The notes beneath the pieces are model-generated. The model did not search any database and was not told the origin of the DNA. It saw nothing but the letters and a program-made list of their open reading frames with translations. Source: Methanomassiliicoccaceae archaeon (GTDB lineage Archaea; Thermoplasmatota; Thermoplasmata; Methanomassiliicoccales; Methanomassiliicoccaceae). From it: a stretch of DNA of 64,000 nt. Location: NCBI GenBank assembly GCA_040776945.1, contig JAXGZN010000002.1, positions 384,001-448,000 on the forward strand. The letters run 5' to 3'. Each line of letters starts with the position of its first letter. Positions within the stretch are counted from its first letter, which is position 1. This document shows, in pieces, positions 14,087 through 36,456 of this stretch. Both the position numbers and the translations under genes were made by a program.

Positions 14087-15355
14087 TTGAAAGCCAGGTC
14101 CACAGGCCGCAAGGCAATAATGCTGGGCATGCATCTGAAGATCCTGCAGGAGATGGGCTCGCACGGCGTGAGCTGCATATCCATGCTCCCTCGGCGACAA
14201 CTGACGGCCTATTCGCGTTATGGCACCCAACAAGCTTGCCCTGGTCCGGAGGTCGATGAGGCAGGGGCCCTCGACACCCTCTATGACAGATGCGTGAAGG
14301 AGGGCGACAGCCCGGTGCTCATCCCGTACAGCGACACATGGGTAAATGCCGTCACCAAGCAAATGAGCAGGTTCAAGGAGGTCTCCACCCCTTGCATGCC
14401 CGACAGAGAGGCTGCGGAGCTGGTGCTGGACAAGGAAAGGTTCTGCCGACTGGGTCAGCAACGGGGATACATGACCCCCATGTCCTGGACCTTGGAGGAG
14501 GCTCGCGAACTGAGCGATGGCCAGTTCCCCATAGTGGCCAAGCCGAAGGTCCACCGGATGACCGGAAACAGGGGGATGGTCCAGATCAACCGGCAAATGG
14601 ACCGCCTGAGGTTCGTGGTGATCAAGGACCGCCAGGAACTGGAGCGTTTCGTTCTAAGGGAGAGGGACCTGCTGCCCTATCTCACCTTTCAGGAGTACGT
14701 CCGGGGAATGACCGACGCGATCTACAACATCGGGCTGTACGCGGACCGCAGATCGACGGTCCTGGGCTCGGTCAGCGGACACAAGATGCGCGGTTATCCG
14801 GCGAGCCACGGGGACTGCGTGCTGGGAGAGAACTGCGAGCTCCCTGAAGAGCTGATGGAAAATGCCCTGAAGATAGTTAGGGACCTCAGGCTCACCGGCC
14901 TGGCCGAGTTCGAGTACAAGAAGGACTCGGAGACGGGCGACTTCAGGCTCATCGAGGTGAATCCTCGAGCCTGGTCGTGGATCGGCATAACCCCGGCCTG
15001 CGGGGTCAGCCTGCCTATGATGGCCTATAAGGACCTTACCGACGCCTATGATCCATCGGACTTCGAGCCCTTCAGCGGCAAGGTGAAGTACGTCCGGCTG
15101 CTGGAGGACCTTGCGAACTGCATGTATCTCTACGGCAAGGACCACCCCCCGTTCAAGCGCTCTCCCTCGGAATGGCTCAGGGACATCAAGGCCGATCGCC
15201 TGGTGGTCTACGACTTCGACCGGCGGGACCCTCTGCCGAGCGCCATTATAATGGTCAACATGCTCCAGAACATGACCCGCCACGCCCTGGGCCGGAGGGG
15301 CGCCCAAGCCGAAAGGGGGCGGGGAACGGACCGGGACCCGCCGCCCGCGATGTAG
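14087..15355 (+). CDS. ATP-grasp carboxylate-amine ligase (D-aspartate ligase-like, polysaccharide-locus type)
   Basis: VLIPYSD, LDKERF, FPIVAKP, FQEYVRG, AEFEYKKD...LIEVNPR ATP-grasp motifs. Confidence 0.88.
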   Translation: MKARSTGRKAIMLGMHLKILQEMGSHGVSCISMLPRRQLTAYSRYGTQQACPGPEVDEAGALDTLYDRCVKEGDSPVLIPYSDTWVNAVTKQMSRFKEVSTPCMPDREAAELVLDKERFCRLGQQRGYMTPMSWTLEEARELSDGQFPIVAKPKVHRMTGNRGMVQINRQMDRLRFVVIKDRQELERFVLRERDLLPYLTFQEYVRGMTDAIYNIGLYADRRSTVLGSVSGHKMRGYPASHGDCVLGENCELPEELMENALKIVRDLRLTGLAEFEYKKDSETGDFRLIEVNPRAWSWIGITPACGVSLPMMAYKDLTDAYDPSDFEPFSGKVKYVRLLEDLANCMYLYGKDHPPFKRSPSEWLRDIKADRLVVYDFDRRDPLPSAIIMVNMLQNMTRHALGRRGAQAERGRGTDRDPPPAM

Positions 15356-15403
15356 GCCGAACGTACAGAACGGCTGCCTTATCATACCAGGCAGGTCGCC
15401 CCA

Positions 15404-17383
15404 TTATTGCCGCGGACGGGCGGAAGGCACGTCCCAGACCGCCAGGCAGAACGTGTTCTGTCCATGGTCCCCGGCATTGGCGAGGTCCAGTGCGGCTGAG
15501 GTCACCGGACCGGCGTCCATGACCTTCTCAAAGACGATCGACCCCCCCGCCGCAAGCTTGGGAACGATGAACTGCCATGCCTTGGCCCCCTCTATCGCCT
15601 TGATGATCTGACCGCCGGCCTTGAGATAGTAGTCGGGGCGCTCCTTCGTGAACAGCGTCAGTCCGATGACGTCCTGTGCGGCGGAGCTCTTGAGGCTCAC
15701 CGCGGTCTCGCTCTCTGAGAGATCGACCCGGTCGATGAGGATCGAGCGATCGTATATCTCTCTAGGGGTTGCGTACCAAACGTTGTAGTTCTCGGACATG
15801 GCAGCGAAGTAGTCGTCGACCAGCGGCATAAGGTGCCAGGTGCCGTCTGGATGGACCTTGGCGCCCAAGGACACCATCTCCGCCCCGGTGATCCTTTCAT
15901 AGGGATGCCCCAGGGCGGGGTGGGACTCGACCGCGTAGTCCTTCCCCCCGTCGCTCACGTACGCGTATCGCCAGGTGTAATCATGCCATATCATCACCGC
16001 GCTGTTGCTGGCATAGATCTCCTGCCGTGCTGCCAGATCGTCCCTGGTGGCCGGAGCGAACGCGGGCTGCCAGTCATTGGTCTCCTCCAGGAAAGCGTAG
16101 GGGGAGGACCGCTGCAGCACCAGTCCCGGGTAGTCAGGATGGCGGTACATCACGCCGCCGAGGTTAAGGTCCTGGGCCTGCGAATGGCTATGGGTCTCAT
16201 CGTTGACCCAGATCATAACGTTCTTCTCGACCAAGCGGTCACTGATGAAATAGGGGGAGGTCGTGACGCGGCCCTGCTGCCAGATGTCCTGCTGCACATC
16301 GCCGTGGTCCACCCATGACCTCAGCGGTCCGTACATGGACTCGAACTGTTCGATCATCGGAATAAGGGCCGCCCGGTCGGATGAATGGCTGGTCACCGCG
16401 TGCAGCCCTATCTCCCACCCCGAGCTTTGAAGGGCGTAGAGGGCCTGCGCGTATTCCGGGTCGGTGTTCACGCTGTACTCCGAGTCACGGCTGGCGGTGT
16501 TCATCCACGCCAGGAACTCTCCGCGGACCCCGTACCTCTCCTTCAATTGCTTCATTATGGCCAGCTGCGCGGGGTTGGCCTGGTCGGCATGTATCTGCAG
16601 AGCCAAGGAGAAATCGTGGCCCCATGGAGTGATGGTCTTGTGGAGCCGGTCTCGATAGGTCACGCTGCCGCCGTTCCCGATGTCCATCCTTTTAATGACC
16701 ACAGCGGCCGGCGAGGACCACCTCTCCCTGTTGGCCTCCAAGGTCGCTCCGGCGAAGACGAGGCGGTCCTCCGCCCTCCCTGTCCGGAAGGAATGTTGGA
16801 AACCGTCAACCCCTACGTTCAAGTTTCCTCCGCTCACCTCCACGGCGATGTCCACCGTGCCCCTGGCGCGTACGTCGTACATGAACGAGAAGCTCTCGTA
16901 CTCGATCGTCCCCTCTCCAAGCCAGATATGTGGGGCGACGGTGATCTTGTTCGGAGTGAGCATGATGGCCGCGGAGTAGTACCACGACGAGGTCTTGGCG
17001 GATGAGAACTTGATGCTCAGACCTAGGAAGTGGGAGGCGTCAAGCGAGCTGAGGTCCAGCTTCATTCTCGTCGAGTTCGCCGTCATCGAGCTCTTCATCA
17101 GATATAGGCTGGAGGCATTGTTGTCAAGGGTCACCTTCAGCCCATCCTCTCCGATGCTGTAGCTCGTCCTCCCCCCGGTCGCCCTGATGCCAACCCCAAG
17201 CGGGAGGCCTCTGAACTCCTCCGAGATCACAGGGTCGCCGATGACATAGCCAGGTTCAGGGAAACGGTCCACGGTCCTCTTCGTCTCGTTTCCCTGCACG
17301 AGGATGCCTGCAGCTAGGACTGTCACGGCGCAGATGCACGCGGCCGCTACGAAGAAGTACCTCTGGGTGACCTTGTTGGCCAT
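15404..17383 (-). CDS. membrane-anchored extracellular protein with a polysaccharide deacetylase-like (NodB/CE4-like) domain
   Basis: N-terminal TM helix from ATG 17383; QIHADQ, GWEIGLHAVT, SWVDHG and VWYATPREIYD motifs. Confidence 0.65.
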   Translation of the reverse strand: MANKVTQRYFFVAAACICAVTVLAAGILVQGNETKRTVDRFPEPGYVIGDPVISEEFRGLPLGVGIRATGGRTSYSIGEDGLKVTLDNNASSLYLMKSSMTANSTRMKLDLSSLDASHFLGLSIKFSSAKTSSWYYSAAIMLTPNKITVAPHIWLGEGTIEYESFSFMYDVRARGTVDIAVEVSGGNLNVGVDGFQHSFRTGRAEDRLVFAGATLEANRERWSSPAAVVIKRMDIGNGGSVTYRDRLHKTITPWGHDFSLALQIHADQANPAQLAIMKQLKERYGVRGEFLAWMNTASRDSEYSVNTDPEYAQALYALQSSGWEIGLHAVTSHSSDRAALIPMIEQFESMYGPLRSWVDHGDVQQDIWQQGRVTTSPYFISDRLVEKNVMIWVNDETHSHSQAQDLNLGGVMYRHPDYPGLVLQRSSPYAFLEETNDWQPAFAPATRDDLAARQEIYASNSAVMIWHDYTWRYAYVSDGGKDYAVESHPALGHPYERITGAEMVSLGAKVHPDGTWHLMPLVDDYFAAMSENYNVWYATPREIYDRSILIDRVDLSESETAVSLKSSAAQDVIGLTLFTKERPDYYLKAGGQIIKAIEGAKAWQFIVPKLAAGGSIVFEKVMDAGPVTSAALDLANAGDHGQNTFCLAVWDVPSARPRQ

Positions 17384-17747
17384 ATTATCGGGTCCAGCCA
17401 AGTATCTAGCATGCTCGATAATTAACTTTCTTTGACAGAGTTCACGTTGGACACGACCGCTCGCGGCCACGAGCGCCGACCGGACCGAGCGTCCCGCCCC
17501 CCTTCGCAGCTCCTTGGCGCCGCATGCGCGAGGACAACCCGACATGAGGCCGGTGTCCCTCTTGTGGCCGGGGAACAAAGCGCTTCGAGATCGCATGGCG
17601 CTCCTCAGGAGGCAGCTGACGGCATCGCCGTGGTGGACCACGAGATCGTCAACGGACCAATGAGCTGGTCAATATCATTTTTTTACATGGAACGCTTAAG
17701 GCCCTACTTACGAGGGAACGGACAGGGCAAGGCCGTTCAGGGCCATC

Positions 17748-18332
17748 ATGCGTTGGAGGACGATGCCGATGAGCACGAGCGCTGGCCTGCGCGGGACCCT
17801 CTCCGCGGTCTTCGACCGTGCCGCCACTCTTGCCTATCAGGGCCTGGCCAAGATAGGCCTCCGGCTCACCTTCTATTACCTCTACTCCCTGGGACCAGAG
17901 CATCCCTCCGTTCAGAACAGGTCTCGAAGGCGGGAAGTCATCTGCCTTCCCGACCCCTCGCCGACATCCGACGAGGCCGCCATCACAGCCTATGTCGGAG
18001 GAGAGAGGGCGGGAAGGGTCGCCCTTACCGCCATGCCCTCCTACATACCCCGGATCAAGGCCACCTGGGACGCGGAGGGGGCGCTGATATACGACCTGAT
18101 GGTCTTGAAGGAAGGAAGGCGCCAGGGCATAGGCAGGTCCCTATTAACGGCCGCGATCGAGGCCAACGCAGGCACCAAGCTCTACGCCATGGTCTTCGTG
18201 ACCAACATGCCGTCCAGAAGGCTGTTCGAGAGCTGCGGCTTTCGGATCGAGGGGCGTTTGTTCTATGTCGAGGTGTTCGGTAAGGCCATCAGGAACGCGG
18301 GCTCATTGAGATATCTCAAGGTCGGGCAGTAG
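17748..18332 (+). CDS. GNAT-family N-acetyltransferase
   Basis: LIYDLMVLKEGRRQGIGRSLL (motif A) and NMPSRRLFESCGF; true start may be a downstream ATG. Confidence 0.85.
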   Translation: MRWRTMPMSTSAGLRGTLSAVFDRAATLAYQGLAKIGLRLTFYYLYSLGPEHPSVQNRSRRREVICLPDPSPTSDEAAITAYVGGERAGRVALTAMPSYIPRIKATWDAEGALIYDLMVLKEGRRQGIGRSLLTAAIEANAGTKLYAMVFVTNMPSRRLFESCGFRIEGRLFYVEVFGKAIRNAGSLRYLKVGQ

Positions 18333-18595: not shown

Positions 18596-19843
18596 TCATC
18601 CCTTGCGGACATCCCACCGGCGGTCCAGTAGGATCTGGGCCCTAAGCGGATCGGACATTCCCCCGGAGTTGAAGTCCGACGGCATGGAAACGTTGATGGC
18701 CCTCTCCACCCGGTGCCCGGCAAGCATGTCGAACCCGCCCTGCTTGTGGGCCCCGATGGTTATGGTGTAGTTGCCGGCCACGAGCAGCCTACGCGGAAAG
18801 GTCAGCCTGGCCTCGAAGGTGCCAGGTCCCAGACTGTCGTTGCTGGCATCCCAGTCGGTGAAATATGAGCGGATGAGCTCGTCGCCAAGGGAGTTGTTGA
18901 TGAAGACCCCCATGCGCAACTTCTCCGCCCTCTCCGGCAGGGAGAACCGCACCACGATGTCGAACTCCTCGGAACCGTCAATGAGGATGGCGTCCCTGCC
19001 GGACTGAAGTATGTCCATCGACAGGACCTCGATGCCCATGGCCTGGATGGGGAACACCCCGTCCTGGACCTCAAGGGAGCGGGAGTACTCGGCTATGACC
19101 TCGTCCACCGGGCCCTTGCCGGCCATCTTGCCCGCTCTCAAAAGCAAAGCGTTCTGGCACAGGTTCTTCACCGCGTGCATGTTGTGCGACACGAAGATGA
19201 CGGTGCGGCCTTCCTCCGAGACCTCCTTCATCTTTCCGAGGCATTTTGTCTGGAACTGCTGGTCTCCGACGGCCAGCACCTCGTCCGCGATCAGCACGTC
19301 TGGCTCCAGGTGCGCGGCCACGGCAAAGGCCAGGCGAAGGTACATCCCCGACGAGAACCTTTTGATCGGAGTGTCCAGGAACTTCTCCACCTCGGCGAAC
19401 CTGACGATGTTGTCGAACCTGGCCTCGATCTGCTTCTTGGTCATCCCCAGGATGGCGCCGTTGAGGAATATGTTCTCTCTGCCGGTGAGGTCGGGGTGAA
19501 ATCCGGTCCCGACCTCCAACAGGCTGCCGACCGAGCCCCGCAGCACGACCTCGCCCTCTGTGGGGTACGTGATCTGGGAGAGTATCTTCAGCAGCGTGCT
19601 CTTCCCCGCGCCGTTCCGTCCTATGATGCCGACGCTCTCTCCCTTCTGGACATCGCAGCTGATGTCCTTCAGGGCCCAGAAGCATTCCTTAGGCTGCCGG
19701 ACGCTCCTGAGGCTCCGGAGGGGATGGCGCACTGCCGTGGCGATGCTGTCGCCGAGCCTTCCCCCTCCCGAGTGGTAGTAGCCCCTGCTGGAGCTGATGA
19801 TGTATTGCTTGGAAACGTTGCGGATCTCGATCATCGGGTCCAT
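18596..19843 (-). CDS. wzt: polysaccharide ABC exporter ATP-binding subunit with C-terminal Wzt_C domain
   Basis: GRNGAGKST, FSSGMYLRLAFAVAAHLEPDVLIADEVLAVGD, VSHNM; C-terminal beta domain. Confidence 0.92.
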   Translation of the reverse strand: MDPMIEIRNVSKQYIISSSRGYYHSGGGRLGDSIATAVRHPLRSLRSVRQPKECFWALKDISCDVQKGESVGIIGRNGAGKSTLLKILSQITYPTEGEVVLRGSVGSLLEVGTGFHPDLTGRENIFLNGAILGMTKKQIEARFDNIVRFAEVEKFLDTPIKRFSSGMYLRLAFAVAAHLEPDVLIADEVLAVGDQQFQTKCLGKMKEVSEEGRTVIFVSHNMHAVKNLCQNALLLRAGKMAGKGPVDEVIAEYSRSLEVQDGVFPIQAMGIEVLSMDILQSGRDAILIDGSEEFDIVVRFSLPERAEKLRMGVFINNSLGDELIRSYFTDWDASNDSLGPGTFEARLTFPRRLLVAGNYTITIGAHKQGGFDMLAGHRVERAINVSMPSDFNSGGMSDPLRAQILLDRRWDVRKG

Positions 19844-20000
19844 AGGAGCACCTCTCCGGTCGCCTTGTTACCCCAGGCCATTCGCCCACTGATTGACCTT
19901 CTACTATTAAGTGGATGTGCCAGCGAGGCCGCCGCCCCGGAACCCGCATGACGCCATGCGCGATGCCCCGCTCGGTCGGAGGATTGGATTCATTGCGGTC

Positions 20001-20012
20001 GATATAAATATC
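20001..20012. promoter_or_regulatory. TATA box of a probably leaderless transcript
   Basis: GATATAAATATC about 25 bp upstream of ATG 20035, with no SD sequence. Confidence 0.55.
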
Positions 20013-20034
20013 CGCGCCGTGCTAGATCGCTCAC

Positions 20035-21093
20035 ATGCGGACGGTGCTCTTGACCACCACCAGCGAGATGAGCGATCATCGCCACGAATGGGAGGAGCTC
20101 AGGCGGGAGTGCCGCGGGACGGTGTACTCGTCGTTCGATATGGTCCGGGCCTGGTTCGAATGCTACCGAGAGGACGCCTCGCCAAGGGTCATCATGGCCG
20201 AGGACCGCGGAGAACTCGTGGGGCTGGCCCCCCTGTCCTATCACCATTACGTGTCGATGGGGCTGCCGATCAGGGTCCTGGCCCTGCCCGGAGAGGTCCG
20301 CCATAAGCTGTGGATGGCGACCGTATCGTTCATGTTCAGGCCCGGGAGGGACGATGCTCTCGAAACCATGGTGGCGAGGGCCAGGAAGGTGGGGTGGAAC
20401 ACCTTCACCGCCTGCCACATGATCGACAACGCTGAGACCAGGCGTTTCATTGGCGCGATGCGCTCGCGGTGGAAGGTTGTCGATCACCGGATGGACAAGA
20501 GCGTCACGCTCACCTTCCCGGAGAAGGGGGACATAGCCACAATGTTCGAGCGGAAGGCCAGGGAGAACCTCAGGAACCGCGCCAAGAAGCTGGAGCGGGA
20601 GAAGGGCGACGTGTCGTTCAGGACACTGCCTCCGGGCGAGGTCGAGGCGGCTGTCGAGGAGTACGCACGGCAGCACGAGGAGCGGTACTCGAAGAAAGGC
20701 GGGAGCATCTTCAGGTCACCCGATAACATCCAGTTCCTGAAAGCCGTGATGAGGGCGGCAATGGACCAGGGCTATGGCTTTGCCCATGAGCTGAGGATCG
20801 ATGGGCAGGTGGCGGCCCAGAGCTTCGGGTTCATCGACGGCGACGTCGTCCGCCCGTACCGCTTCGGGATGAACGACGCCTTCACCGCCTACTCTCCGGG
20901 ATGGCAGCTGCATCATCGCTCATTCTCTTATTTTCGGGACCGCGGCATGAGACAATGCTCCCTGGGGGCCGGCGACGAGGCCTACAAGTACCGGATGGGG
21001 GGCGTGGAATCTCAGCTGCTGGGGATCATGGTAAGGAGGGGAGCGATCGGCCTCGTGGACAGGATGGCCCGCCGGTTGGAGGCCGGAAGGTGA
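20035..21093 (+). CDS. GNAT Acetyltransf_6 (CelD/BcsL-like) protein, paralog 1
   Basis: 'WEELRRECRGTVYSS..W...ELVGLAPL' N-terminus; 'LRIDGQVAAQ.FGF...YSPGW...LGAGDEAYKY' C-terminus. Confidence 0.85.
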   Translation: MRTVLLTTTSEMSDHRHEWEELRRECRGTVYSSFDMVRAWFECYREDASPRVIMAEDRGELVGLAPLSYHHYVSMGLPIRVLALPGEVRHKLWMATVSFMFRPGRDDALETMVARARKVGWNTFTACHMIDNAETRRFIGAMRSRWKVVDHRMDKSVTLTFPEKGDIATMFERKARENLRNRAKKLEREKGDVSFRTLPPGEVEAAVEEYARQHEERYSKKGGSIFRSPDNIQFLKAVMRAAMDQGYGFAHELRIDGQVAAQSFGFIDGDVVRPYRFGMNDAFTAYSPGWQLHHRSFSYFRDRGMRQCSLGAGDEAYKYRMGGVESQLLGIMVRRGAIGLVDRMARRLEAGR

Positions 21094-21272
21094 GAGGACG
21101 CGGAAAGACCCCGGAAGATGTTGACAGCTCGCTCAAGCATATCGGGGCACATCGTGAGCGATTGCCGGGGAGGGTCGGAGAGAGGGAACTCGTCACCGGA
21201 TGTCCTTTATGAACAAAATCCCTAATGGCAAATAAATTATATTCGTCCCTGACATATCTTGGTGGTCTTTGG

Positions 21273-22415: not shown

Positions 22416-22427
22416 TCGTGTTCAAAG

Positions 22428-23552: not shown

Positions 23553-23613
23553 CTATGAAAAATTTAATATATTTCGAGATGAAAATAAGAACTAGATGGA
23601 ATAGGTGTGAGAA

Positions 23614-25918: not shown

Positions 25919-25928
25919 ACCCCTCATG

Positions 25929-27113: not shown

Positions 27114-27177
27114 CGGGACCTCCCCATGGAGCGATTCATGCGACGCTCGATTGTATGAGACCGTACAAATATATATC

Positions 27178-28620: not shown

Positions 28621-28651
28621 CCCCCAGCCCTGCCGGTCGAAAGGAAGGGCA

Positions 28652-30145
28652 TCAGTCCCCCCTCCTTCCGGCGGTCCTCCCGCTCCTCATGGCTGTGAAG
28701 CGGCGGGCGTAGTTGAGCGCGATGTCGATCTCGTCCCTGGTGAAGCCCTTAAGGGCCAGTAGGACCACGAAATAGATGACGGCCCCGGCCGCAATGACCA
28801 GGAATATGCCCAGCATGCTGCCGGTGGTCCCGATCAAGAGGATGCTCGCGGCCATGGCCAAGGAGGCCGCCACGCTCTTGGCGATCGCGGCCCAGTCCAC
28901 GCTGAAGGTGAGGAACCGCCTGGATATGGACAGGCCGATGAGCAGCATGACCACGTGGGACGCGGTCGCGGCGATACCGGCGCCGACTATGCCGAACAGC
29001 GGGGTGAGCACGAACACCAGGGCGACGTTCAGGACCGCCGGGATGCTGAACGTTATGAAGTTCAGATGGGTCTTCTTCACCAGGTGAGGCACATTGTCCA
29101 CGAACCGGGACATGCCTGACAGCAGGCCTGCCAGCGCGATGAAGGGGATCACCGCCGCCCCGGGCGCGAACGCCGGGGTCGTCAGCGCCATGATGATCGG
29201 TCCGGCCAGGACCGATATGCCGACCACTGCGGGCAGGACAAGTATCATGTAATAGCGGAAGGACCTCCTCAGGTACTCCTTGACCTGGTCGATCCTGCCA
29301 TCATCATATAGTCTCGCCAGGGTCGGATAGAGGACCAGCTGTATGGGGGCGACCAATAGGTAGATCACCGCGCCGATGTTGAACGCCGCGGAATATATGC
29401 CCGCCAGGCTCAGACCGACCAGGATGGCCAGCAAATACCTGTCGCTTGAGGACAGGACCCAGTGGATAAGGGTATTGGGGGTCAGGGGCAGCCCGAACTT
29501 GAAGTTCCGCTTGAATATCTCCCGGTCCGGCCGGGAATATCCGACCTGACGAAGCACCAGGGACAGACCCATTATGAACGCCACCACCGCGATGATGAAG
29601 GAGCCGAGCACCGCTCCCAGGACGCCCATGCCTCCGACCACGAACAGCAGGATGAGCCCGACCTCGCCGAAGGCGTTGAAGATGTTCACCAAGGCATAGG
29701 TCCTGATCTGCCCCATCGCCCTGAAGTAGGAGCTGTTGATCCCCGTGAAGGCCGCGAAGGGCACGGTAAGCGCTCCCAACACTAGCACGGCGGCCAAGGT
29801 CCCGTCCTGGAAGATGAACTCGGCGAGAGGGACGCAAAGGGCGATCATGGCCGCGGTCAGAACGGCGCCGAAGGCCGCCACGATGGCGAAGGCCCCGAAG
29901 TACTCCCGGCTGATCCTTTTTCGGTCCTCCCCGGACCTCAGGAACCTGAGGAGGGTCACGCTCTGTCCCAGGATGGCCACCGACGACAACAGGGAGATGG
30001 TGACCAGCACCTGCACCCAGAGCCCGTAGTCATTGGTCCCCAGGGTCTTGGTGATGACCGGCAGGAGAAGGAAGTTGCCGACGTTCACCAGCACCTGAGT
30101 GAGACCAATGATAACCGCATCCTTTGCCAGGTCCTTGAACGCCAT
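28652..30145 (-). CDS. wzx: Wzx-type (MOP superfamily) oligosaccharide flippase
   Basis: About 14 TM segments; LLPVITKTLGTNDYG and FGLPLTPN...SSDRYLL...GIYSAA motifs. Confidence 0.88.
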   Translation of the reverse strand: MAFKDLAKDAVIIGLTQVLVNVGNFLLLPVITKTLGTNDYGLWVQVLVTISLLSSVAILGQSVTLLRFLRSGEDRKRISREYFGAFAIVAAFGAVLTAAMIALCVPLAEFIFQDGTLAAVLVLGALTVPFAAFTGINSSYFRAMGQIRTYALVNIFNAFGEVGLILLFVVGGMGVLGAVLGSFIIAVVAFIMGLSLVLRQVGYSRPDREIFKRNFKFGLPLTPNTLIHWVLSSSDRYLLAILVGLSLAGIYSAAFNIGAVIYLLVAPIQLVLYPTLARLYDDGRIDQVKEYLRRSFRYYMILVLPAVVGISVLAGPIIMALTTPAFAPGAAVIPFIALAGLLSGMSRFVDNVPHLVKKTHLNFITFSIPAVLNVALVFVLTPLFGIVGAGIAATASHVVMLLIGLSISRRFLTFSVDWAAIAKSVAASLAMAASILLIGTTGSMLGIFLVIAAGAVIYFVVLLALKGFTRDEIDIALNYARRFTAMRSGRTAGRRGD

Positions 30146-30386
30146 TCCGTTCCTCCGTTCGAGCCCGGACAAATATGGTGAACATGTAGATAGAACATCC
30201 TACCTGAATCTGGAGGCGGGACGTACTCCGCGGGATAGGCCCGATCGGCGCCGAGGGAAGGGGACCGAATATTCATTCCGCGAACCTAGGATGCATCACA
30301 TTGCATTATATTGAGAGGGCACGATACATGATGGGTTCGGAGGTAATATTTATCAAGATAGATACCGCTTGGACCCGGTGGGTGGG

Positions 30387-32036
30387 ATGAGGTCCAAGCT
30401 TAGGGTCGGACTGTTGCTGGACGGGGCCGTCGTGCCGTACTGGGCCGCCCGAACGATCGAAAGGATCGTCCGCTCCGGCTCGGCCGACATAGTCCTGGCG
30501 GTGGTGGACGGAGGCACTGAGAAGGACATCGACCCCATCAGGGCCACAGAGTCCTTCCTTTATGATACCTACATCTGGTTCGACCGCCGGAAGAACGGCA
30601 GGCGCTTGGACCCACTCGCCGCCGAGGACATCCCTCCGGACCTGGACAAGGCCTCCAGAGTATATCTGAGACGAACCACCGAGGCCCGCCGATTTCTTTC
30701 CGAGGAGGTTGTCCGCAAGATCCACGAGCGCGATCTGGACGTGATGATCGACATAGGCAACGTGACCCCCTTGGGAGAACTTTCGCGCTGCGCCCGCCAC
30801 GGCGTGTGGTCGTTCTCCCCAGGCGACGGCGTGAGATATGACTCCAGCTCCCCTGGCTTTTGGGAGATATTCCATCGGGAACCGGTCACCTGCGCTCATG
30901 TGCGGCGCATCGTGCGCGGTTCGACCTCCATCATCTACCTTTCAAGGTCGCATACGATCACCACGTCGGAGAAGAGGAACCGTGACCAGCTGTACCTCAA
31001 GGGGATCTCGTTCCTGCCTAGGCTCCTGGACATGCAATACGCTCTTGGGAAGGAACCCCTGCCCTCGCTGGATGTGGGAACGGTAACCGCTCAACCCTCG
31101 CTTCGCCGCAACGGGCCGGGCAACCTCGACATGATGTCCTATTATATCCGCAGGCTGCCTCGGGACGCCCGACTGCTGTCCGGAAGAGCGCTCTTTGAGG
31201 AGCGATGGGCGGTCCAGTACAGCCTGGACAGCAAGATCCCATCCAGTTATGACGGCTTTCATCAGCTGATGCCTCCGAAGCACACCTGGTGGGGGGACCC
31301 CCAGGCGGCGCAGCAGGACGATGATTATTACATCTTCATCGAGGAGCTCGCTCTGCCCCGCAGCCGCAACCACGCCCGCATCTCGGTCATCAAGCTCAAT
31401 GCCGACGGCGGCCACGAGGGGCCGGTCCCGGTCCTGGAACGTCCGTACCACTTGTCCTATCCCTTCGTCTTCGAGTGGAAGGGCTCGCACTACATGGTCC
31501 CGGAGTCCTCCAACAATCGGACCATCGAGCTGTACGAGGCCGAGGAGTTCCCGTACCGCTGGAGGTTCGTCAAGGACATCATGACCAACGTTGAGGCGGT
31601 GGACACCACCATCGTCCGCCGCCACGGACTGTGGTGGCTCTTCACCAACATGCGGGAGAACGAGGGCGGCCCGATCAACGACGAGCTGTTCCTCTTCCGC
31701 TCGGACGATCTGCTGGGGGACGACTGGGTCCCGCATCCTCTAAACCCCATCGTCACCGATGTCCGCTCCGCCCGTCCGGCCGGGCGGATATTCGAGATGG
31801 ACGGGGTGCTGTACCGTCCGTCCCAAGATTGCTCGAAATGCTATGGGTACGCGGTCAACATCAACCGCATCCAGGAGATGACCGAGGCGACATATAGAGA
31901 GTCCAGGACCGCATACCTGGAGCCTAAGGAGTTCCCCGGCGCCTCCCGGGTGCATACCTTCAGTCACATCCACGGCCTCACCGCAGTGGACACCTATATC
32001 GCAAGGCCGCGGTTCCTTCCTGAGCGTCCGAACTAG
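30387..32036 (+). CDS. fusion of a formyltransferase-like N-domain and a five-bladed beta-propeller (GH43/32-like, GINT1 N-terminal-like) domain
   Basis: GVWSFSPGD...PGFWEI...PVT; WWGDP...IFIEE; LERPYHLSYPFVF...YMVPES; W.PHPLNPI...ARPAG...RPSQDC..CYG. Confidence 0.75.
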   Translation: MRSKLRVGLLLDGAVVPYWAARTIERIVRSGSADIVLAVVDGGTEKDIDPIRATESFLYDTYIWFDRRKNGRRLDPLAAEDIPPDLDKASRVYLRRTTEARRFLSEEVVRKIHERDLDVMIDIGNVTPLGELSRCARHGVWSFSPGDGVRYDSSSPGFWEIFHREPVTCAHVRRIVRGSTSIIYLSRSHTITTSEKRNRDQLYLKGISFLPRLLDMQYALGKEPLPSLDVGTVTAQPSLRRNGPGNLDMMSYYIRRLPRDARLLSGRALFEERWAVQYSLDSKIPSSYDGFHQLMPPKHTWWGDPQAAQQDDDYYIFIEELALPRSRNHARISVIKLNADGGHEGPVPVLERPYHLSYPFVFEWKGSHYMVPESSNNRTIELYEAEEFPYRWRFVKDIMTNVEAVDTTIVRRHGLWWLFTNMRENEGGPINDELFLFRSDDLLGDDWVPHPLNPIVTDVRSARPAGRIFEMDGVLYRPSQDCSKCYGYAVNINRIQEMTEATYRESRTAYLEPKEFPGASRVHTFSHIHGLTAVDTYIARPRFLPERPN

Positions 32037-33190
32037 GCGCGCTCGATCATCCGATCGTAGGCCGAAGCGAGATCGGAGGCAAGCCGGTCCCACGAGTACC
32101 GCAGAGCGTGGGCGGCGATCTCGGCAGCATCCCACTCACGCTCCAGCGCCTCATCGATCGCCGCGGCGAGCGCCTCGGCGTCGCCCGGAGGGCAGAGCAG
32201 GCCCAAGCGGTCAGAGCAAATAACGTCCGGCACCCCGCCGACCTCCGTTCCGACGAACGGGCGGCCGCATCCCAGGCACTCGAACATCACCGTTGGGTTG
32301 CCCTCTCCAAGGCTTGGAAGGACGAACACGTCGGCGGCGCTCATCCACCGCGCGATGCCGGAGGAAGGGAACGGCTCGGTGACCAGCCTAACCACCTTCT
32401 CCAGCCCCAGCTGTCCTATCCGGTCCTGAAGCTGGCGCCGCAGCGAGCCGTCCCCCAGTATATAGAGCAAAATATCCTCGTGATGGCTGGCCACCTTGAC
32501 CATGGCCTCCATGAGATGTGCGTGGCCTTTTACCGGCTCGAGGTACCCTACGGTTACCAGGACCTTACTTCCCCTGGGCATGCCAAGCTCTTCCCTGGCA
32601 TCTCCCTTGTCCATGGGACGGAAGACCTTCGAGTCGAACCCGTTGGGGAGAGAGATGACCTCTGGACCCTCCCCCGCGATGCGGGTTATGGGGCCGATCC
32701 ATGAGGGCGAGGTGACGATGACCGTCCCCGACCGTCCTAGGGCCATACGGACCATGGACCGTACAAGGGGTGACGCTCTGTCGTAGAACTCAACGAACAT
32801 GCCGCCGTGGATGTGGAGCGCGACCTTGGAGCCGAGCCCATGCCGGGCCCACAGAACGTAAGGGATGTTCCGCAGGAAGCTGTAATAGGAAGAGGTATGG
32901 ACGTGCGTGATGTCCGCTCGGTCCCCCCTCGACCGAAGAACGAACCTGAGCGCCGCCGTTAGGTCCCTGATCGGCTGAACCACCGCGTTGGATGCGCCGA
33001 ACCCTCCGGTGCGGTGGACGGTCACCTCGAAGCCCTCGCTTGGGAGCCGCTCCATCATGTTGCGCACGAAGTTGGCGACCCCTCCGTTGGGTGGGGGAAG
33101 AGGCCCTATCATCACAACCCTGCCGCCCCTGTGCCGCTCAACATCGGCGGCCATTACCAAATCCCTCCCGTCCGCATAATCGACGCTCAC
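32033..33190 (-). CDS. GT4-family glycosyltransferase
   Basis: PPPNGGV, PNGFD, VGYLEPVKG, DVFVLPSLGEGNPTVMFECLGCG. Confidence 0.92.
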   Translation of the reverse strand: MSVDYADGRDLVMAADVERHRGGRVVMIGPLPPPNGGVANFVRNMMERLPSEGFEVTVHRTGGFGASNAVVQPIRDLTAALRFVLRSRGDRADITHVHTSSYYSFLRNIPYVLWARHGLGSKVALHIHGGMFVEFYDRASPLVRSMVRMALGRSGTVIVTSPSWIGPITRIAGEGPEVISLPNGFDSKVFRPMDKGDAREELGMPRGSKVLVTVGYLEPVKGHAHLMEAMVKVASHHEDILLYILGDGSLRRQLQDRIGQLGLEKVVRLVTEPFPSSGIARWMSAADVFVLPSLGEGNPTVMFECLGCGRPFVGTEVGGVPDVICSDRLGLLCPPGDAEALAAAIDEALEREWDAAEIAAHALRYSWDRLASDLASAYDRMIERA

Positions 33191-33229
33191 CGCTCGGAGG
33201 GCGTGTCCCTTCGGACCTTCCTCCGACGG

Positions 33230-34993
33230 TCATCCAGGCGACCTCGCGTAGACCTTGAAGTCGCCACCGATGTACACGTGATCGACCGTGGTCCCGTAGT
33301 TCAACAGGACGAAGTCCTGTGGACCGAACTTCCCGGTCTGCGCCCAGGTCCGGGAGTACGCCTGCTCCTCGTATTCCGTGATCACCAAATAGACGCTGCT
33401 CAGCCCGCTGGTGTTGGACCTCAGGAAGGAACCGAAGTGGGCGGAGGTCTCCCGGTCGTTGGTGTAGATGTCGTAGTCCGTCCGCTTGTACGCCGAACCG
33501 TATATCAGATCGGCGTACCTCCACGGGTTCGTCCGGACCGTGTAGAGAGTATAGTCAATTGCGTCCTTGTCGGTGACCAACCAGTTCGATCCGGTCACTT
33601 CCGAACGGCTGATCGAGCCGTTGGGGAAAACAGTGTTGGGATCCTGATATGCCGTGAACACGGTGGACACCAGGGCAAAGACGATCACCACGGACACCAC
33701 GCGGGCGAGGGCCGTCCTCCCGGTGGTCCTGAGGACGTACAGCGCGTAACCCACCAGGGGTACGGTGAATATGACTATGAAGTTCAGATTGATCAGGCGG
33801 AACGGGTTGTGGGCATAGGTCATGAAGACGATGGCCATGAGGTACGCTCCGCCCACCAGGAACAGCCCCACCACCAGGGTCATGGGGTGCGTCCTCCAAC
33901 CCCGCCTGAATATCATGACGGCCGCCACCATCCCCATCAGGACGAACGCCAGGTCATCGGCCACGCACATGAGGACCGATCGTATGGTGGACAGGATGCC
34001 CATCCTGGACGCTTGGGACGACGCGCTGCCGAAGGTGGTGAAACCATCAGCAAAGCCGAGGAGCTGCTCCACGATGTTGCGCAGGTCCTTGACGAGCAGC
34101 GCGTGGAAGACTATCCAGCCGAAAAGGAGCACGAAGCCGTAGGCGATCATGTATGGGGAGATCGACCTGATCCTCCTCTTGGTGACGAGATCGTTGATCA
34201 GGACGACCCCCAGGAACAGCAGGACGGTCATCGCCACCAGGGGGTGGCCGATCACGAAGAATACGATGAACAGGGCCACCAGGCCCTTGTACCTGGCATC
34301 GCCGTCCATGCTCTTCCAGAGGATGAAGAAGAAGAGGGGAAGCATGAGGACGCACAGAGTCTCGTTGAACAGAGTGGGGATGAACCAAGCGAAGAAGATG
34401 GGCATGGAGGCCAGCATCGTGGAGGTTACGAACATCGGCCGCGATATGATCGTCCGGGCCCAGCACAGGATGCCGACGGTGTAGGCGGAGAAGAAAAGGG
34501 CCGGAAGGAACTGTGACATGGCGATCATGCCCTGCCCTGCCGCCTCGCCGGCCATGGACATGATGATGGAGGCGAACGGGTAGAAATTGAAGGACGGGAA
34601 ATGGCCCAAGTTGACGATGTCCTTGGCGTATCCCACGTAGGACAGGGAGTCCGTCCTCTCCAGATAGATGAAGCCCTTGTACACGTACAGGGTCATGAGC
34701 ACGAAGTTGGAGAGTATTATCTGGAACAGGCCTACGGACCAGAGGCGGGACCTCGTACCATAATAGGTGTAGAAGAGCAGGATGCCAGTGAGTTGGCAGA
34801 AGACGATGGAGAGCCAGAAGATCAAGGGCGTGCTGTTGTAGATCGAATACTCGTATCCCTTCATGGGATCAGAGTAGACGGCCAGTACAGCGATGGTCAG
34901 GGCCAGGAACCCCAGCGAGGAGATGAGGACGACGTACCGTTGCAGCCTGCGGTTCTCTGATATCTCCCTCATGGTCTCGAAGGTACCGGCCAT
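33230..34993 (-). CDS. polytopic membrane protein, putative GT-C-fold glycosyltransferase or polymerase
   Basis: About 12-13 TM segments; loop RTDSLSYVGYAKDIVNLGHFPSFNFYP; C-terminal soluble domain; polysaccharide-locus context. Confidence 0.55.
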   Translation of the reverse strand: MAGTFETMREISENRRLQRYVVLISSLGFLALTIAVLAVYSDPMKGYEYSIYNSTPLIFWLSIVFCQLTGILLFYTYYGTRSRLWSVGLFQIILSNFVLMTLYVYKGFIYLERTDSLSYVGYAKDIVNLGHFPSFNFYPFASIIMSMAGEAAGQGMIAMSQFLPALFFSAYTVGILCWARTIISRPMFVTSTMLASMPIFFAWFIPTLFNETLCVLMLPLFFFILWKSMDGDARYKGLVALFIVFFVIGHPLVAMTVLLFLGVVLINDLVTKRRIRSISPYMIAYGFVLLFGWIVFHALLVKDLRNIVEQLLGFADGFTTFGSASSQASRMGILSTIRSVLMCVADDLAFVLMGMVAAVMIFRRGWRTHPMTLVVGLFLVGGAYLMAIVFMTYAHNPFRLINLNFIVIFTVPLVGYALYVLRTTGRTALARVVSVVIVFALVSTVFTAYQDPNTVFPNGSISRSEVTGSNWLVTDKDAIDYTLYTVRTNPWRYADLIYGSAYKRTDYDIYTNDRETSAHFGSFLRSNTSGLSSVYLVITEYEEQAYSRTWAQTGKFGPQDFVLLNYGTTVDHVYIGGDFKVYARSPG

Positions 34994-35097
34994 CGCTCTC
35001 CGGCCCCAAGATAGGATAGGACCTATTTATGTCAGTCATGATAATATTATCAGGCCGGTAATGAACCGTAAGAACTTAGCGGCGCGGTCCTCCGACA

Positions 35098-35925
35098 TCA
35101 TATCACATCGGCGAGCCGGCGCTCGTATGCCTTGAAGTAGAGCAGGCCTAGGAAGAACACGACCATCGTCAGGGGTATGGACACCAGGAACATCCCGATG
35201 TCCAGGACGGAGTCGAATATGAACGCGCGCTGGGCCGACATTATCCCCGCCAGAGGGTTCAGCGGCAGGATCCATCGAAGGCTCTCGTTCTGCACCCAGG
35301 ACGAAGGATAGAGGACCGGGGTTGCGTAGAGCAGTATGGTGATGAAGAACGGGACGATGTACTGGACATCGCGGTACTTGGCAGCCATGGCCGACATGAG
35401 GAACGACAGGCCGCACGATAACAGGAACGTAAGCACCAGGGGTATGATCGTCAGGGGCAGGAGGACGGACAGTGACTCACCGGTTAACAGCACGATGCCG
35501 AAGAACAGGCCCCATGCTATGGCATAGTCCAGGAGGGCGGCGATGACCAAGCTCAGAGGCAGCAGAATGCGGGGAAAGTACACCTTGGTCACCATGGCGA
35601 CGTTGGTGATCAGGCTCATCGACGCTCCGTTAAGGCCTGTGGAAAAGAAGGTCCACAGCATGAGACCAGCGTAGAGGAACGGGATCGGCTTCACGCCGCC
35701 GGTGCTCAGTCCGGCGACCTCGTAGAAGATGACCGCGAAGATGATGGTGGTCAGCATCGGCTGCAGGACGGCCCACCCGACCCCGATAGCGGTCTGCTTG
35801 TACTTGGTCTGGATCTGCTTCAAGGTCAGGAAGTACAGCAGCTCGCGGTAGTCCCAGACCTCCTTTAGGCCAAGCTCCCACCGGGAGGCCTTGGGGCGGA
35901 TGATCTTTTCCTTGACGGCAGCCAT
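35098..35925 (-). CDS. wzm: polysaccharide ABC exporter permease
   Basis: YRELLYFL...KYKQTAIGVGWAVLQP, KVYFPR, KYRDVQYI...ATPVLYP, LNPLAG. Confidence 0.92.
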   Translation of the reverse strand: MAAVKEKIIRPKASRWELGLKEVWDYRELLYFLTLKQIQTKYKQTAIGVGWAVLQPMLTTIIFAVIFYEVAGLSTGGVKPIPFLYAGLMLWTFFSTGLNGASMSLITNVAMVTKVYFPRILLPLSLVIAALLDYAIAWGLFFGIVLLTGESLSVLLPLTIIPLVLTFLLSCGLSFLMSAMAAKYRDVQYIVPFFITILLYATPVLYPSSWVQNESLRWILPLNPLAGIMSAQRAFIFDSVLDIGMFLVSIPLTMVVFFLGLLYFKAYERRLADVI

Positions 35926-36449: not shown

Positions 36450-36456
36450 AGCGGGG

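Follow-up and report, generated by a model that had tools for sequence, protein, structure and literature searches.

The source organism is a member of Methanomassiliicoccus, a genus for which, to our knowledge, no cell wall is known, and the stretch of its genome analysed here (the window, 64 000 nucleotides) raises the question of what is made by a locus in which glycosyltransferases are few and amide- or acyl-forming enzymes are many. A sequence-only reading had noted this imbalance and proposed a short glycan extended with amino acids or acyl groups. The imbalance is real and, apart from a deacetylase-like protein whose match is below threshold, that inventory is confirmed (five Acetyltransf_6 proteins, two ATP-grasp ligases, a PaaK/CapK-like enzyme, a small GNAT, a GT4 glycosyltransferase, a GT-C-fold protein and a formyltransferase-like/propeller fusion; Table 1), but both export routes, a Wzm/Wzt ABC exporter and a Wzx flippase, had been omitted. 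On a slight balance of probability, we regard this as a modular surface-glycan locus in which a cytoplasmic module decorates the product, ahead of its export, with several acyl or aminoacyl groups in amide linkage.

Table 1 Genes of the locus and its flanks (positions in the window)
Feature	Position	Strand	Basis
Signal-anchored flanking surface protein, Ig-like repeats and right-handed β-helix	11624..13909	+	Pfam
ATP-grasp ligase 1	14087..15355	+	ATPgrasp_Ter, CPSase_L_D2 (Pfam)
745-codon ORF, probable anchored extracytoplasmic protein	15404..17641	-	One hydrophobic segment
Small single-domain GNAT acetyltransferase	17748..18332	+	Acetyltransf_1
Wzt, ATPase of O-antigen/teichoic-acid-type ABC exporter	18596..19843	-	ABC_tran, Wzt_C
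Acetyltransf_6 paralogue a	20035..21093	+	PF13480, 92.1 bits
Acetyltransf_6 paralogue b	21225..22415	+	PF13480, 77.1 bits
Acetyltransf_6 paralogue c	22428..23552	+	PF13480, 75.7 bits
Acetyltransf_6 paralogue d	23614..24738	+	PF13480, 86.1 bits
Acetyltransf_6 paralogue e	24839..25918	+	PF13480, 65.8 bits
ATP-grasp ligase 2, COG3919 type	25929..27113	-	NCBIfam PRK12767-type, PDB 2pn1
PaaK/CapK-like adenylate-forming enzyme	27178..28620	-	NCBIfam, PDB 4r1l
Wzx-type MOP flippase	28652..30172	-	Polysacc_synt
Two-domain protein, formyltransferase-like fold and GINT1_N propeller	30369..32036	+	Pfam, AlphaFold/Foldseek
GT4 glycosyltransferase, soluble	32033..33190	-	Glyco_trans_1_4, Glycos_transf_1
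Polytopic membrane protein, GT-C-like fold	33230..34993	-	11 hydrophobic segments, Atlas structure
Wzm, ABC exporter permease	35098..36003	-	ABC2_membrane
Small glyoxalase/VOC-superfamily ORF	36033..36449	+	Glyoxalase, 40.8 bits
903-residue acidic cell-surface protein	36457..39168	-	Two hydrophobic segments, pI

Locus organization and conservation

The locus is modular, rather than the single block first described. A conserved core (18596–39168) runs from Wzt to the 903-residue surface protein and contains Wzt, the GNAT array, ATP-grasp 2, the PaaK-like enzyme, Wzx, the GINT1_N-type fusion, the GT4 and GT-C-like proteins, Wzm and the 903-residue protein. The comparative-genomics check suggested with the initial reading found this ten-gene core syntenic in four of the ten congeners searched, with gene order nearly unchanged and 55–90% identity, so the grouping of these genes is not due to chance. 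The left part (14087–18332), with ATP-grasp 1, the 745-residue protein and the small GNAT, lies outside the core and varies between species. The small GNAT (Acetyltransf_1 41.6 bits) has weak homologues (28–35% identity) at the same position in genomes G001 and G007. The flanking surface protein (Pfam Beta_helix 91.9 bits, plus NosD, Filamin and Big_3_5) is a non-biosynthetic neighbour of the locus, with homologues of 48–66% identity adjoining it in G001, G007 and G010, and it is uncertain whether the glyoxalase/VOC ORF, located between Wzm and the 903-residue protein, is part of the locus.

The variable left part, the at least seven changes of transcription direction over the locus and the co-occurrence of GINT, GT4, GT-C-like and 745-residue genes (34–49% identity) on one bacterial MAG contig (L024) would suit a mosaic in which unrelated genes, gained by horizontal transfer, do not work together. 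Given the conserved core, we consider such a mosaic highly improbable. Metatranscriptome contigs of four studies, mapped on the core, also speak against the mosaic by covering nearly all of it (30/30, 29/30, 27/30 and 19/30 bins at ≥99% identity), although assembled contigs show neither strand nor level and DNA can occur in RNA libraries.

The Acetyltransf_6 array

The five tandem genes (20035–25918, + strand) score 65.8–92.1 bits against PF13480 (cut-off 22), the copies being 39–42% identical to the first. The syntenic congeners carry four, four, four and six copies, one of the six being split. Seven PF13480 matches are found in the genome, compared with at most four in every other of the 301 genomes of the phylum searched. 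In the tree, the orthogroups of paralogues a and d have support 100/100, that of b 100/98 and that of c, shared with G002 and G007, 100/99; those of b and d have members in all four congeners. Divergence of the paralogues is thus older than the species. Paralogue e is closest to one G007 copy (49% identity) and is placed in the tree without a resolved group.

Paralogue a, which like all the tailoring enzymes has no transmembrane segment in a hydrophobic-segment scan, is modelled as a cytoplasmic tandem-GNAT protein with a FemX-like fold (AlphaFold pLDDT 95.0). Its best Foldseek match is FemX (6snr, E 7e-13, TM 0.63), and 11 of the 12 best PDB fold matches are aminoacyl-tRNA-dependent transferases (FemX, FemA, Sba18/Sbb17). 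The C-terminal domains of MprF/LPG synthases, which aminoacylate lipids, are also among the matches (TM 0.5–0.55). The fold relationship to FemABX stated earlier is therefore borne out. By sequence, however, the array proteins fall outside the FemAB family: Pfam returns PF13480 only, a PF02388 match is absent from the genome and a profile searched against the PDB reaches FemX at E 0.056–1.4. The lysine of a G-x-G-x-E-x-Y-K motif is invariant in all 39 aligned sequences. Among the best 150 matches, 17 of the 22 representatives of at least 500 residues have two or three fused PF13480 modules and one PF13480–GT2 fusion occurs, which fits enzymes acting in series on glycans.

The array might instead comprise ordinary acyl-CoA-dependent N- or O-acyltransferases that place acetyl or small acyl groups at various positions of a glycan, no amino acid being attached, with the PaaK-like and ATP-grasp enzymes supplying or recycling the donor. 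PF13480 is one of the families of the GNAT acetyltransferase superfamily, and the acetyl-CoA tandem GNATs clavulanate CBG (2wpw) and glucosamine N-acetyltransferase (5kf1) are clear fold matches (E about 1e-10), ranked below those of FemX/FemA/Sba18 type. In an alignment of the C-terminal GNAT domain with RimI, which spans the CoA-pyrophosphate loop, one of the loop's two glycines is retained. Two precedents point the same way: HfsK, the one genetically studied relative, is discussed as a putative N-acyltransferase whose donor is not established (PMC5362036), and sugars acylated with glyceric acid are present in a methanogen N-glycan (PMC11407970). We nevertheless rate simple acylation as fairly unlikely, because the best fold matches are aminoacyl-tRNA-dependent enzymes, simple acetylation does not usually call for five old paralogues or for relatives in which two or three modules are fused, and a conserved amide-forming ATP-grasp enzyme lies alongside. 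Four of the five paralogues are also basic (pI 8.8–9.5, versus a median of 6.07 for the long ORFs of the genome), a weak pointer to a polyanionic partner such as tRNA. Counting against the favoured reading are the position of the array proteins outside the FemAB family, the acetyl-CoA users that share their fold and the absence of a tRNA gene from the window.

ATP-grasp ligases and the PaaK-like enzyme

ATP-grasp 1 (ATPgrasp_Ter 29.9 bits, cut-off 29.1; also CPSase_L_D2) is about 25% identical to ATP-grasp 2 and belongs to a separate subfamily; its orthologues (45–68% identity) in G001, G002, G004, G005 and G006 are locus-adjacent only in G001. ATP-grasp 2 falls under the Pfam cut-off (25.6 bits), matches NCBIfam PRK12767-type models (E 8e-12) and PDB 2pn1 (E 4e-8), and has orthologues of 64–76% identity in four congeners; its homologues carry the JGI labels 'D-aspartate ligase' or 'ATP-grasp carboligase'. 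The CapK-like protein (61–69% identity in four congeners) hits NCBIfam PaaK-type models at E 1e-23 to 5e-19, all under equivalog cut-offs, with a DVU1553-family AMP ligase best (E 1e-23) and the PaaK model giving E 2e-20, and aligns with the PaaK structure 4r1l over about 350 residues (54–403; E 3e-15).

In metagenome loci of at least 8 kb, homologues of ATP-grasp 2 have a GT4 gene nearby in 19 of 39 cases and a PF13480 gene in four of 39. A single-sequence phmmer search found no PaaK-like gene near ATP-grasp homologues in 80 metagenome loci, and around GINT homologues in bacteria PaaK-like and PF13480 genes each occur in one of 80 loci. These counts weigh against the favoured reading and indicate that the three-enzyme set is no widespread fixed unit in those samples.

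The tailoring module could also act on something other than a glycan, by acylating or aminoacylating membrane lipids or the neighbouring surface protein or by building a separate small metabolite, and would then only be a neighbour of the export and glycan genes. The MprF/LPG-synthase fold matches and the conserved acidic surface protein at the end of the locus are in keeping with this, as are other ATP-grasp paralogues, in this genome and its relatives, near which locus genes were not found. Glycan export genes, however, lie to either side of the array, and in G001 the Wzx gene sits within it; together with the GT2 fusion, the GT4 neighbours of ATP-grasp homologues and the effect of HfsK on a polysaccharide adhesin (PMC5362036), this makes a target off the glycan improbable. 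Against the favoured reading counts that no window ORF scanned makes a uronic acid or amino sugar, UDP-sugar dehydrogenases being encoded elsewhere in the genome.

Glycan assembly and export

The GT4 protein scores 103.6 bits (Glyco_trans_1_4) and 102.4 bits (Glycos_transf_1). The membrane protein previously called a possible GT-C has no Pfam or NCBIfam match, and its 11 hydrophobic segments and the GT-C-type clusters matched by its Atlas structure (DUF2206, TM 0.75; RgtA/B/C/D-like, TM 0.83; PMT_2, TM 0.60) uphold that call; it is probably an extracytoplasmic glycosyltransferase using a lipid-phosphate-sugar donor, as judged from the model. Fold likewise supports the fusion of a formyltransferase-like domain and a propeller (AlphaFold pLDDT 88): its C-terminal half (GINT1_N 128.2 bits) is a five-bladed propeller of GH43/GH117 type, and Foldseek matches include GH117 and GH43 proteins, 10-FTHFD, Fmt and the formyltransferase domain of ArnA. 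The N-terminal half has lost the His-His pair of bacterial homologues, the archaeal proteins having S-P in its place. Its more than 2400 homologues are mostly bacterial, and in bacteria such fusions accompany GT4 genes, not the GNAT/ATP-grasp/CapK set.

Wzt (ABC_tran 80.4 bits; Wzt_C 38.3 bits, cut-off 30.4) matches NCBIfam teichoic-acid and galactan exporter models (E 1e-63 and 2e-52), is 79–90% identical in four congeners and has a C-terminal domain predicted to be of the glycan-end-binding type. Wzm (ABC2_membrane 46.7 bits; galactan exporter permease Wzm/RfbD, E 1e-16) is 81–84% identical in four congeners. Wzx (Polysacc_synt 81.6 bits; 12 hydrophobic segments) has the holdfast protein HfsF as its best NCBIfam model (E 8e-44, under the cut-off). 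The occurrence of two exporters in one locus counts against our preferred interpretation.

As first reported, neither a priming transferase nor a nucleotide-sugar gene is found among the window ORFs scanned. Over the whole genome, PF00953 (MraY-type) and PF02397 have no match, and the three PF03721 and 12 GT2 matches all lie outside the window. The lack of PF00953 and a single Mur_ligase_M match in the genome are compatible with an organism that lacks pseudomurein.

Proposed pathway

Gene families, folds, synteny, paralogue age and the occurrence of the sequence in RNA libraries are observations; from here on, every substrate, the order of steps and the final carrier are what we infer. The locus would comprise export (Wzm/Wzt and Wzx), assembly (the cytoplasmic GT4, the GINT1_N-type protein and the GT-C-fold membrane enzyme, which would take sugar from a lipid-phosphate donor and attach it on the outer side of the membrane) and cytoplasmic tailoring (ATP-grasp, the PaaK-like enzyme and five old, specialized FemX-fold tandem GNAT paralogues). 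Tailoring would take place on the cytoplasmic side, with the glycan or its sugar units still lipid- or nucleotide-linked. The ATP-grasp enzyme would form, by way of an acyl-phosphate, an amide between a carboxylate, for example of a uronic acid, and an amine or amino acid. The PaaK-like enzyme would convert a carboxylic acid to an acyl-AMP, and each GNAT paralogue would, at a fixed step, attach a single acyl or aminoacyl group to an amino group, with acyl-CoA or aminoacyl-tRNA as the donor. The decorated product would then be flipped or pumped out and coat a cell of no known wall; it might be a lipoglycan or EPS, or be carried by the neighbouring 903-residue protein.

The tailoring enzymes resemble bacterial HfsK (GNAT) and Cj1438 of C. 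jejuni, an ATP-grasp enzyme established to amidate capsule glucuronate (PMC11800379). The proposed amino-acid-amidated glycan resembles Methanococcus N-glycans, in which threonine-amidated uronic acids are present (PMC11407970). We likewise infer any extension of the glycan with amino acids, its donor and acceptor not being readable from sequence. A wall polymer that genuinely carries peptide is rather unlikely, and marks the bold end of the range that the data allow.

Surface proteins

The 903-residue protein, a candidate glycoprotein or anchor partner, has hydrophobic segments at residues 5–24 (signal/TM) and 873–899 (C-terminal TM anchor), a pI of 4.57 and 12 N-X-S/T sequons. It has no Pfam, NCBIfam or PDB match and is syntenic in G001, G002 and G007 (55–60% identity). 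For the 745-residue ORF, the earlier description as deacetylase-like is weakly based: DUF2334 scores 18.9 bits (E 0.0012; cut-off 26), the Atlas gives a lead at 0.80 and the PDB gives no sequence match. Its homologues are confined to G007 and contig L024. It has a hydrophobic segment at residues 91–110 and orthologue alignments begin at residue 90, suggesting that translation probably starts at Met87 (about 17383) and that the protein is extracytoplasmic with an N-terminal anchor.

Gene content of the locus

All long ORFs between 11.6 and 39.2 kb of the window, the GC content of which is ∼0.61, were scanned against Pfam and NCBIfam (see the table). The map agrees with the inventory of tailoring enzymes drawn up in the sequence-only reading, except that the protein listed there as deacetylase-like (the 745-codon ORF) reaches only 18.9 bits with DUF2334 (cut-off 26); its Atlas value of 0.80 is in a range that chance also reaches, and the assignment as a polysaccharide deacetylase is weak. 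The same reading had left the three export genes (wzt, wzm and wzx) unmentioned. It was right that priming transferase and nucleotide-sugar genes are absent from the window: the UDP-sugar dehydrogenase and GT2 matches are all located elsewhere in the genome. Neither PF00953 nor PF02397 has a match in the whole genome (99.84% complete), and the absence of PF00953 together with a single PF08245 match, far from the window, speaks against murein- or pseudomurein-type wall synthesis. No tRNA genes were found in the window. Sequence searches of the PDB returned chance antibody matches only for the 745-amino-acid protein and no match for the 903-amino-acid protein.

Features of the glycan locus (window coordinates; bit scores with the model cut-off where given)
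Feature	Position	Strand	Family evidence
β-Helix/Ig surface protein	11624-13909	+	
ATP-grasp 1	14087-15355	+	ATPgrasp_Ter 29.9 bits (cut-off 29.1)
745-codon ORF, start probably Met87	15404-17641	-	One membrane anchor
Small GNAT	17748-18332	+	
Wzt	18596-19843	-	ABC_tran 80.4 bits; Wzt_C 38.3 bits (cut-off 30.4)
Five Acetyltransf_6 genes (a-e)	20035-25918	+	PF13480 65.8-92.1 bits (cut-off 22)
ATP-grasp 2	25929-27113	-	ATPgrasp_Ter 25.6 bits (below cut-off 29.1)
PaaK/CapK-like enzyme	27178-28620	-	
Wzx	28652-30172	-	Polysacc_synt 81.6 bits (cut-off 28.2); 12 hydrophobic segments
GINT1_N protein	30369-32036	+	PF24793 128.2 bits (cut-off 27), residues 311-514
GT4	32033-33190	-	
11-segment membrane protein	33230-34993	-	
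Wzm	35098-36003	-	ABC2_membrane 46.7 bits (cut-off 26.9)
Small VOC-family ORF	36033-36449	+	
903-amino-acid protein	36457-39168	-	

Conservation and presence in RNA libraries

Searches with the window proteins using tblastn recovered the core neighbours in near-identical order from four congeners (G001, G002, G007 and G010): Wzt, the Acetyltransf_6 row, ATP-grasp 2, the PaaK-like enzyme, Wzx, the GINT protein, GT4, the membrane protein, Wzm and the 903-amino-acid protein, with the G010 contig stopping at Wzm. Sequence identities in these genomes are 79-90% for Wzt, 81-84% for Wzm, 68-80% for the GINT protein and 55-69% for the other core genes. Of 41 related genomes, 20 contain a match to ATP-grasp 2; close orthologues (64-76% identity) occur in only four of the ten congeners searched. 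The left part of the stretch, comprising ATP-grasp 1 and the 745-amino-acid gene, is outside the core: orthologues of ATP-grasp 1 are present in five congeners, only one of them adjoining the locus, and the 745-amino-acid gene recurs among the congeners in G007 only. Two congeners, G001 and G010, have a further, distantly related PaaK-like gene (27% identity to that of the window) between wzt and the GNAT array (L013 11128-12291 and L011 14104-15237, respectively), a position at which the window has no such gene.

Part of one 10 kb stretch of the locus is present in 16 runs recorded as RNA. Contigs from four runs, belonging to four sludge or digester studies, cover 30, 29, 27 and 19 of the 30 bins spanning 19200-39199, nearly all at ≥99% identity; strand, level and DNA carry-over are not readable from such assembled contigs, and some bins have a depth of 0 in runs X4 and X6, where lack of cover proves nothing. 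Contigs stop close to 19870 in three runs and close to 30153 in three; these places are the two divergent intergenic regions, which weakly suggests real transcripts and hints at divergent units.

The Acetyltransf_6 array

Each of the five GNATs spans the PF13480 model nearly end to end. The array holds five copies in the window, four in G002, 3+1 in G010, four in G001 and six in G007, where one copy (L015 12223-13298) is split across two reading frames and is thus probably a frameshifted pseudogene. Maximum-likelihood analysis of 24 copies assigns paralogues a-d to four distinct orthogroups with support of 100/98 to 100/100, while e is unplaced. These paralogues therefore predate the species and have been kept apart, which speaks for separate functions and against a recent amplification.

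PF13480 gives seven matches in this genome, any match at all in 74 of 301 phylum genomes (a tally that takes in one unpublished genome, G316, on which no conclusion rests) and more than four in no other genome. A word-indexed search found 22 close relatives of the paralogues (at least 35% identity), all source-named ones being from Methanomassiliicoccus sp., beyond which scores fall to bacterial CelD/BcsL proteins with 22-25% identity. An exhaustive search gave 11 770 representatives at E ≤ 0.001 and only 41 at E ≤ 1e-30. Among the best 150, the 22 representatives of at least 500 residues were all scanned: 17 hold two or three PF13480 modules per chain, and other fusions comprise one GT2-PF13480 protein and one each with a methyltransferase, SCP2 and REC-GGDEF. 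The multi-module chains agree with enzymes acting in series.

A contig from one RNA library (run X1, depth 18) joins position 21896 to 23073, omitting 1176 nt (392 codons); the joint would fuse paralogues b and c in frame, and 62 nt match both sides. It could reflect either a strain in which unequal recombination has left one copy fewer or an artefact of assembly at the shared stretch. Two further PF13480 genes, accompanied by GT2 and GT4 matches, are located ∼125-140 kb upstream of the window (G000:C2:242039-260975) in what is probably a second glycan locus; the copy at 260547 is highly divergent, with a tree branch length of 5.9.

Structural similarity to FemX

The AlphaFold model of paralogue a (from a 39-sequence alignment) has a pLDDT of 95.0 and a pTM of 0.91. 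A Foldseek comparison with the PDB returned the tandem two-GNAT-domain fold of FemX: FemX/FemA/Sba18-type proteins match best (TM scores of 0.58-0.65, E values of 7e-13 to 3e-11), the leading entries being FemX (PDB entries 6snr, 7z6a, 1xf8, 1ne9 and 4ii9) and FemA (1lrz), at 7e-13 to 9e-12. The FemX proteins of S. aureus and W. viridescens have E values of 7e-13 to 5e-12. FemA, the aminoacyl-tRNA-dependent peptide synthases Sba18/Sbb17 and a Bacteroides protein without known function are among the top 12, MprF C-terminal domains rank lower and acetyl-CoA tandem GNATs appear at about 1e-10. The C-terminal motif G-x-G-x-E-x-Y-K has an invariant lysine (39 of 39 aligned sequences), which we suspect corresponds to the catalytic lysine of FemX.

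Whereas FemX and FemA are the best structural matches, significant sequence similarity to the Fem proteins is lacking. PF02388 (FemAB) has no match at E ≤ 0.01 in the five GNATs and none in the whole genome, GNAT a had no hit when PDB sequences were searched, and a profile of the 39 GNATs reaches FemX among PDB sequences at an insignificant E of 0.056-1.4. The absence of PF02388 and the insignificant profile match rule out membership of the FemAB sequence family. Four of the five paralogues are basic (pI 8.8-9.5), which is a weak hint of tRNA binding because 21% of the long ORFs of the genome also have a pI above 8.5. The hints of an aminoacyl-tRNA donor are all indirect: besides the pI, they are the tRNA dependence of the enzymes nearest in fold and the invariant lysine.

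FemX, FemA and FemB are several paralogues working in series. A corresponding proposal, which we consider rather improbable, is that the five GNATs would form an archaeal Fem-type assembly line in which each adds one residue from a specific aminoacyl-tRNA and which, together with the ATP-grasp ligase, adds a short branch of peptide to the lipid-linked surface glycan of a methanogen that has no known cell wall. A murein precursor is excluded as the acceptor, since the genome has no MraY-type genes. If this held, the envelope polymer would carry peptides, might be open to cross-linking and would need no Mur- or MraY-type enzyme for its synthesis; the array would also be the first case of peptides being formed non-ribosomally, and dependent on tRNA, on a glycoconjugate of an archaeon.

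The Caulobacter crescentus holdfast locus, compared here by description, offers a likeness in gene content, with a Fem-like tandem GNAT (HfsK), a deacetylase (HfsH) and a flippase (HfsF), which is the best NCBIfam match of the flippase in the window; PF13480 is also present in the Caulobacter control genome. HfsK is described as a soluble two-GNAT-domain protein that has FemX as its nearest solved structure and acts on an exported polysaccharide, with the donor left open in that account (PMC5362036). The holdfast genes are single and bacterial, whereas the archaeal locus has five diverged paralogues in a row beside an ATP-grasp and a PaaK-like enzyme. HfsK also has a C-terminal c-di-GMP switch. 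PF13480 tandem GNATs form a very large family for which we found little biochemistry in print, and a full-text literature search on PF13480/Acetyltransf_6 found none on a glycan enzyme. Five specialized paralogues beside an amide ligase would be a good system in which to learn whether the family uses aminoacyl-tRNA or acyl-CoA.

ATP-grasp and PaaK-like enzymes

ATP-grasp 2 matches PRK12767 NCBIfam models (E = 8e-12, far under the model cut-offs) and PDB entry 2pn1 (E = 4e-8); 'D-aspartate ligase' (COG3919 type) is no more than a source label on its homologues. The PaaK-like enzyme matches PaaK structures at E = 3e-15 over ∼350 residues, but its best NCBIfam scores (83.5, 72.9 and 68.3 bits) are far below the respective equivalog cut-offs (300, 700 and 646), indicating a relative of PaaK rather than PaaK itself. 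In 39 metagenome loci of at least 8 kb around ATP-grasp 2 homologues, GT4 is nearby in 19 and PF13480 in four, and no PaaK-like gene was found. Paralogues of ATP-grasp 2 are present in tandem (38-40% identity) at G000:C1:334301-336865 in the same genome and singly in relatives (L017-L020). No locus genes were found near the distant paralogues (in G015, G014, G001:C3, G036 and C1 of this genome); the ATP-grasp family is thus not glycan-specific and has a further role in these archaea.

A precedent for an ATP-grasp enzyme in glycan tailoring is Cj1438 from a surface-polysaccharide locus of Campylobacter jejuni, which is described as amidating glucuronate at its C6 carboxylate (PMC11800379). By description, Cj1438C is TupA-like and fused to a GT2 domain, in contrast to the stand-alone COG3919/PRK12767-like proteins found here.

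Backbone and export genes

The GINT protein was modelled by AlphaFold with a pLDDT of 88 as a formyltransferase-like N-terminal half, similar in fold to the formyltransferases 2cfi, 4iqf and 5j63, followed by a five-bladed propeller resembling GH117, GH43, GH130 and GH68. No Pfam formyltransferase match was found in it at E ≤ 0.01. At a place that would correspond to the formyltransferase motif, most bacterial homologues have H-H, whereas S-P is present in the window protein and in its relatives from archaea; formyl transfer by the archaeal clade is therefore unlikely. Homologues are numerous (>2400 matches) and mainly bacterial. HMM scans around 80 of the bacterial ones found GT4 in 44 loci, ATP-grasp in four, and PF13480 and a PaaK-like gene in one each, and tblastn found PF13480 in none of the 80. 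On these counts, the idea that GNAT, ATP-grasp and PaaK-like genes form a constant set near bacterial GINT homologues is rejected; the frequency of GT4 and the rarity of tailoring genes place GINT in a backbone module.

The 11-segment membrane protein has no Pfam or NCBIfam match. The Atlas's own model of it resembles a DUF2206 cluster (TM score of 0.75), an 'RgtA/B/C/D-like' group (0.83) and PMT_2 (0.60), suggesting a GT-C fold. The closest non-archaeal set of these genes is on a MAG contig labelled Bacteriovoracaceae (L024, 1801-16000), with a GINT protein (49%), GT4 (45%), a GT-C-like protein (34%) and a homologue of the 745-amino-acid protein (45%); either inter-domain transfer of the backbone module or a mis-binned contig would account for it.

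For export, the ABC ATPase with its Wzt_C domain and the ABC-2 permease, all above the Pfam cut-offs, constitute a Wzm/Wzt pair, and the Polysacc_synt protein with its hydrophobic segments is a Wzx/MOP flippase. The ABC components resemble TagH and galactan Wzt/Wzm of O-antigen and teichoic acid export under the NCBIfam equivalog cut-offs. In such exporters, the cap at the end of the chain is read by the Wzt_C domain. The present system differs in belonging to an archaeon, whose carriers are of the dolichol type, and in having the wzm and wzt genes at opposite ends of the locus alongside a wzx gene.

Proposed function and significance

On balance, we favour a three-module surface-glycan locus in which a cytoplasmic module would install several amide-linked substituents before export. 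Comparable chemistry is described for methanogen N-glycans: those of Methanococcus maripaludis and M. voltae carry a threonine amide, and that of Methanoculleus marisnigri a glyceric-acid-acylated sugar (PMC11407970). These, too, are surface glycans of archaea in which uronic or diamino sugars bear amide-linked amino acids or unusual acyl groups, but they are short, protein-borne and transferred by AglB, whereas the ABC exporter, Wzx and GT-C-like enzyme of the present locus point to a polymer or to second-site decoration. The only STT3/AglB match in the genome (G000:C1:630481-631749) is within a 2154-residue open frame, which is unusually long for an oligosaccharyltransferase. The capsule-glucuronate ATP-grasp of C. 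jejuni, the Fem-like HfsK and the decorated methanogen N-glycans are precedents; what is new here is that the host is an archaeon, that the array of five is old and that the genus has an unsettled envelope.

Members of the Methanomassiliicoccales live in guts and digesters and make methane by methyl reduction. Neither a wall nor an S-layer is described as seen in Methanomethylophilus alvi, and M. luminyensis is reported to have two membranes (PMC10673518). Among the papers listed by a full-text literature search, none tied Methanomassiliicoccus to FemAB, ATP-grasp, exopolysaccharide, glycan or GNAT. A conserved locus that is found in RNA libraries and is predicted to export a heavily tailored glycan provides a concrete handle on the cell coat, which matters for aggregation, for contact with the host and for the adsorption of viruses.

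Flanking genes

Upstream of the locus (817-4894 and 10143-10994) are two large proteins with weak AAA_16 matches, one of them with a double zinc ribbon, and a third, zinc-ribbon protein. Downstream, at 47022-51521 and 53272-63975, NifH-like and nitrogenase-component-1-like (nifH/nifD-like) genes stand beside a CobB/CobQ-type amidase, which is followed by hemA, hemB, hemL, hemC, a uroporphyrinogen methylase gene, hemD and cbi genes; we take this block to serve the synthesis of coenzyme F430 and corrinoids, as is typical of a methanogen. Nearer to the locus, ∼3 kb past the surface-protein gene and separated from it by SufBD and ABC genes, an Acyl_transf_3 membrane acyltransferase (42050-43180, 147 bits) could O-acylate an exported glycan.
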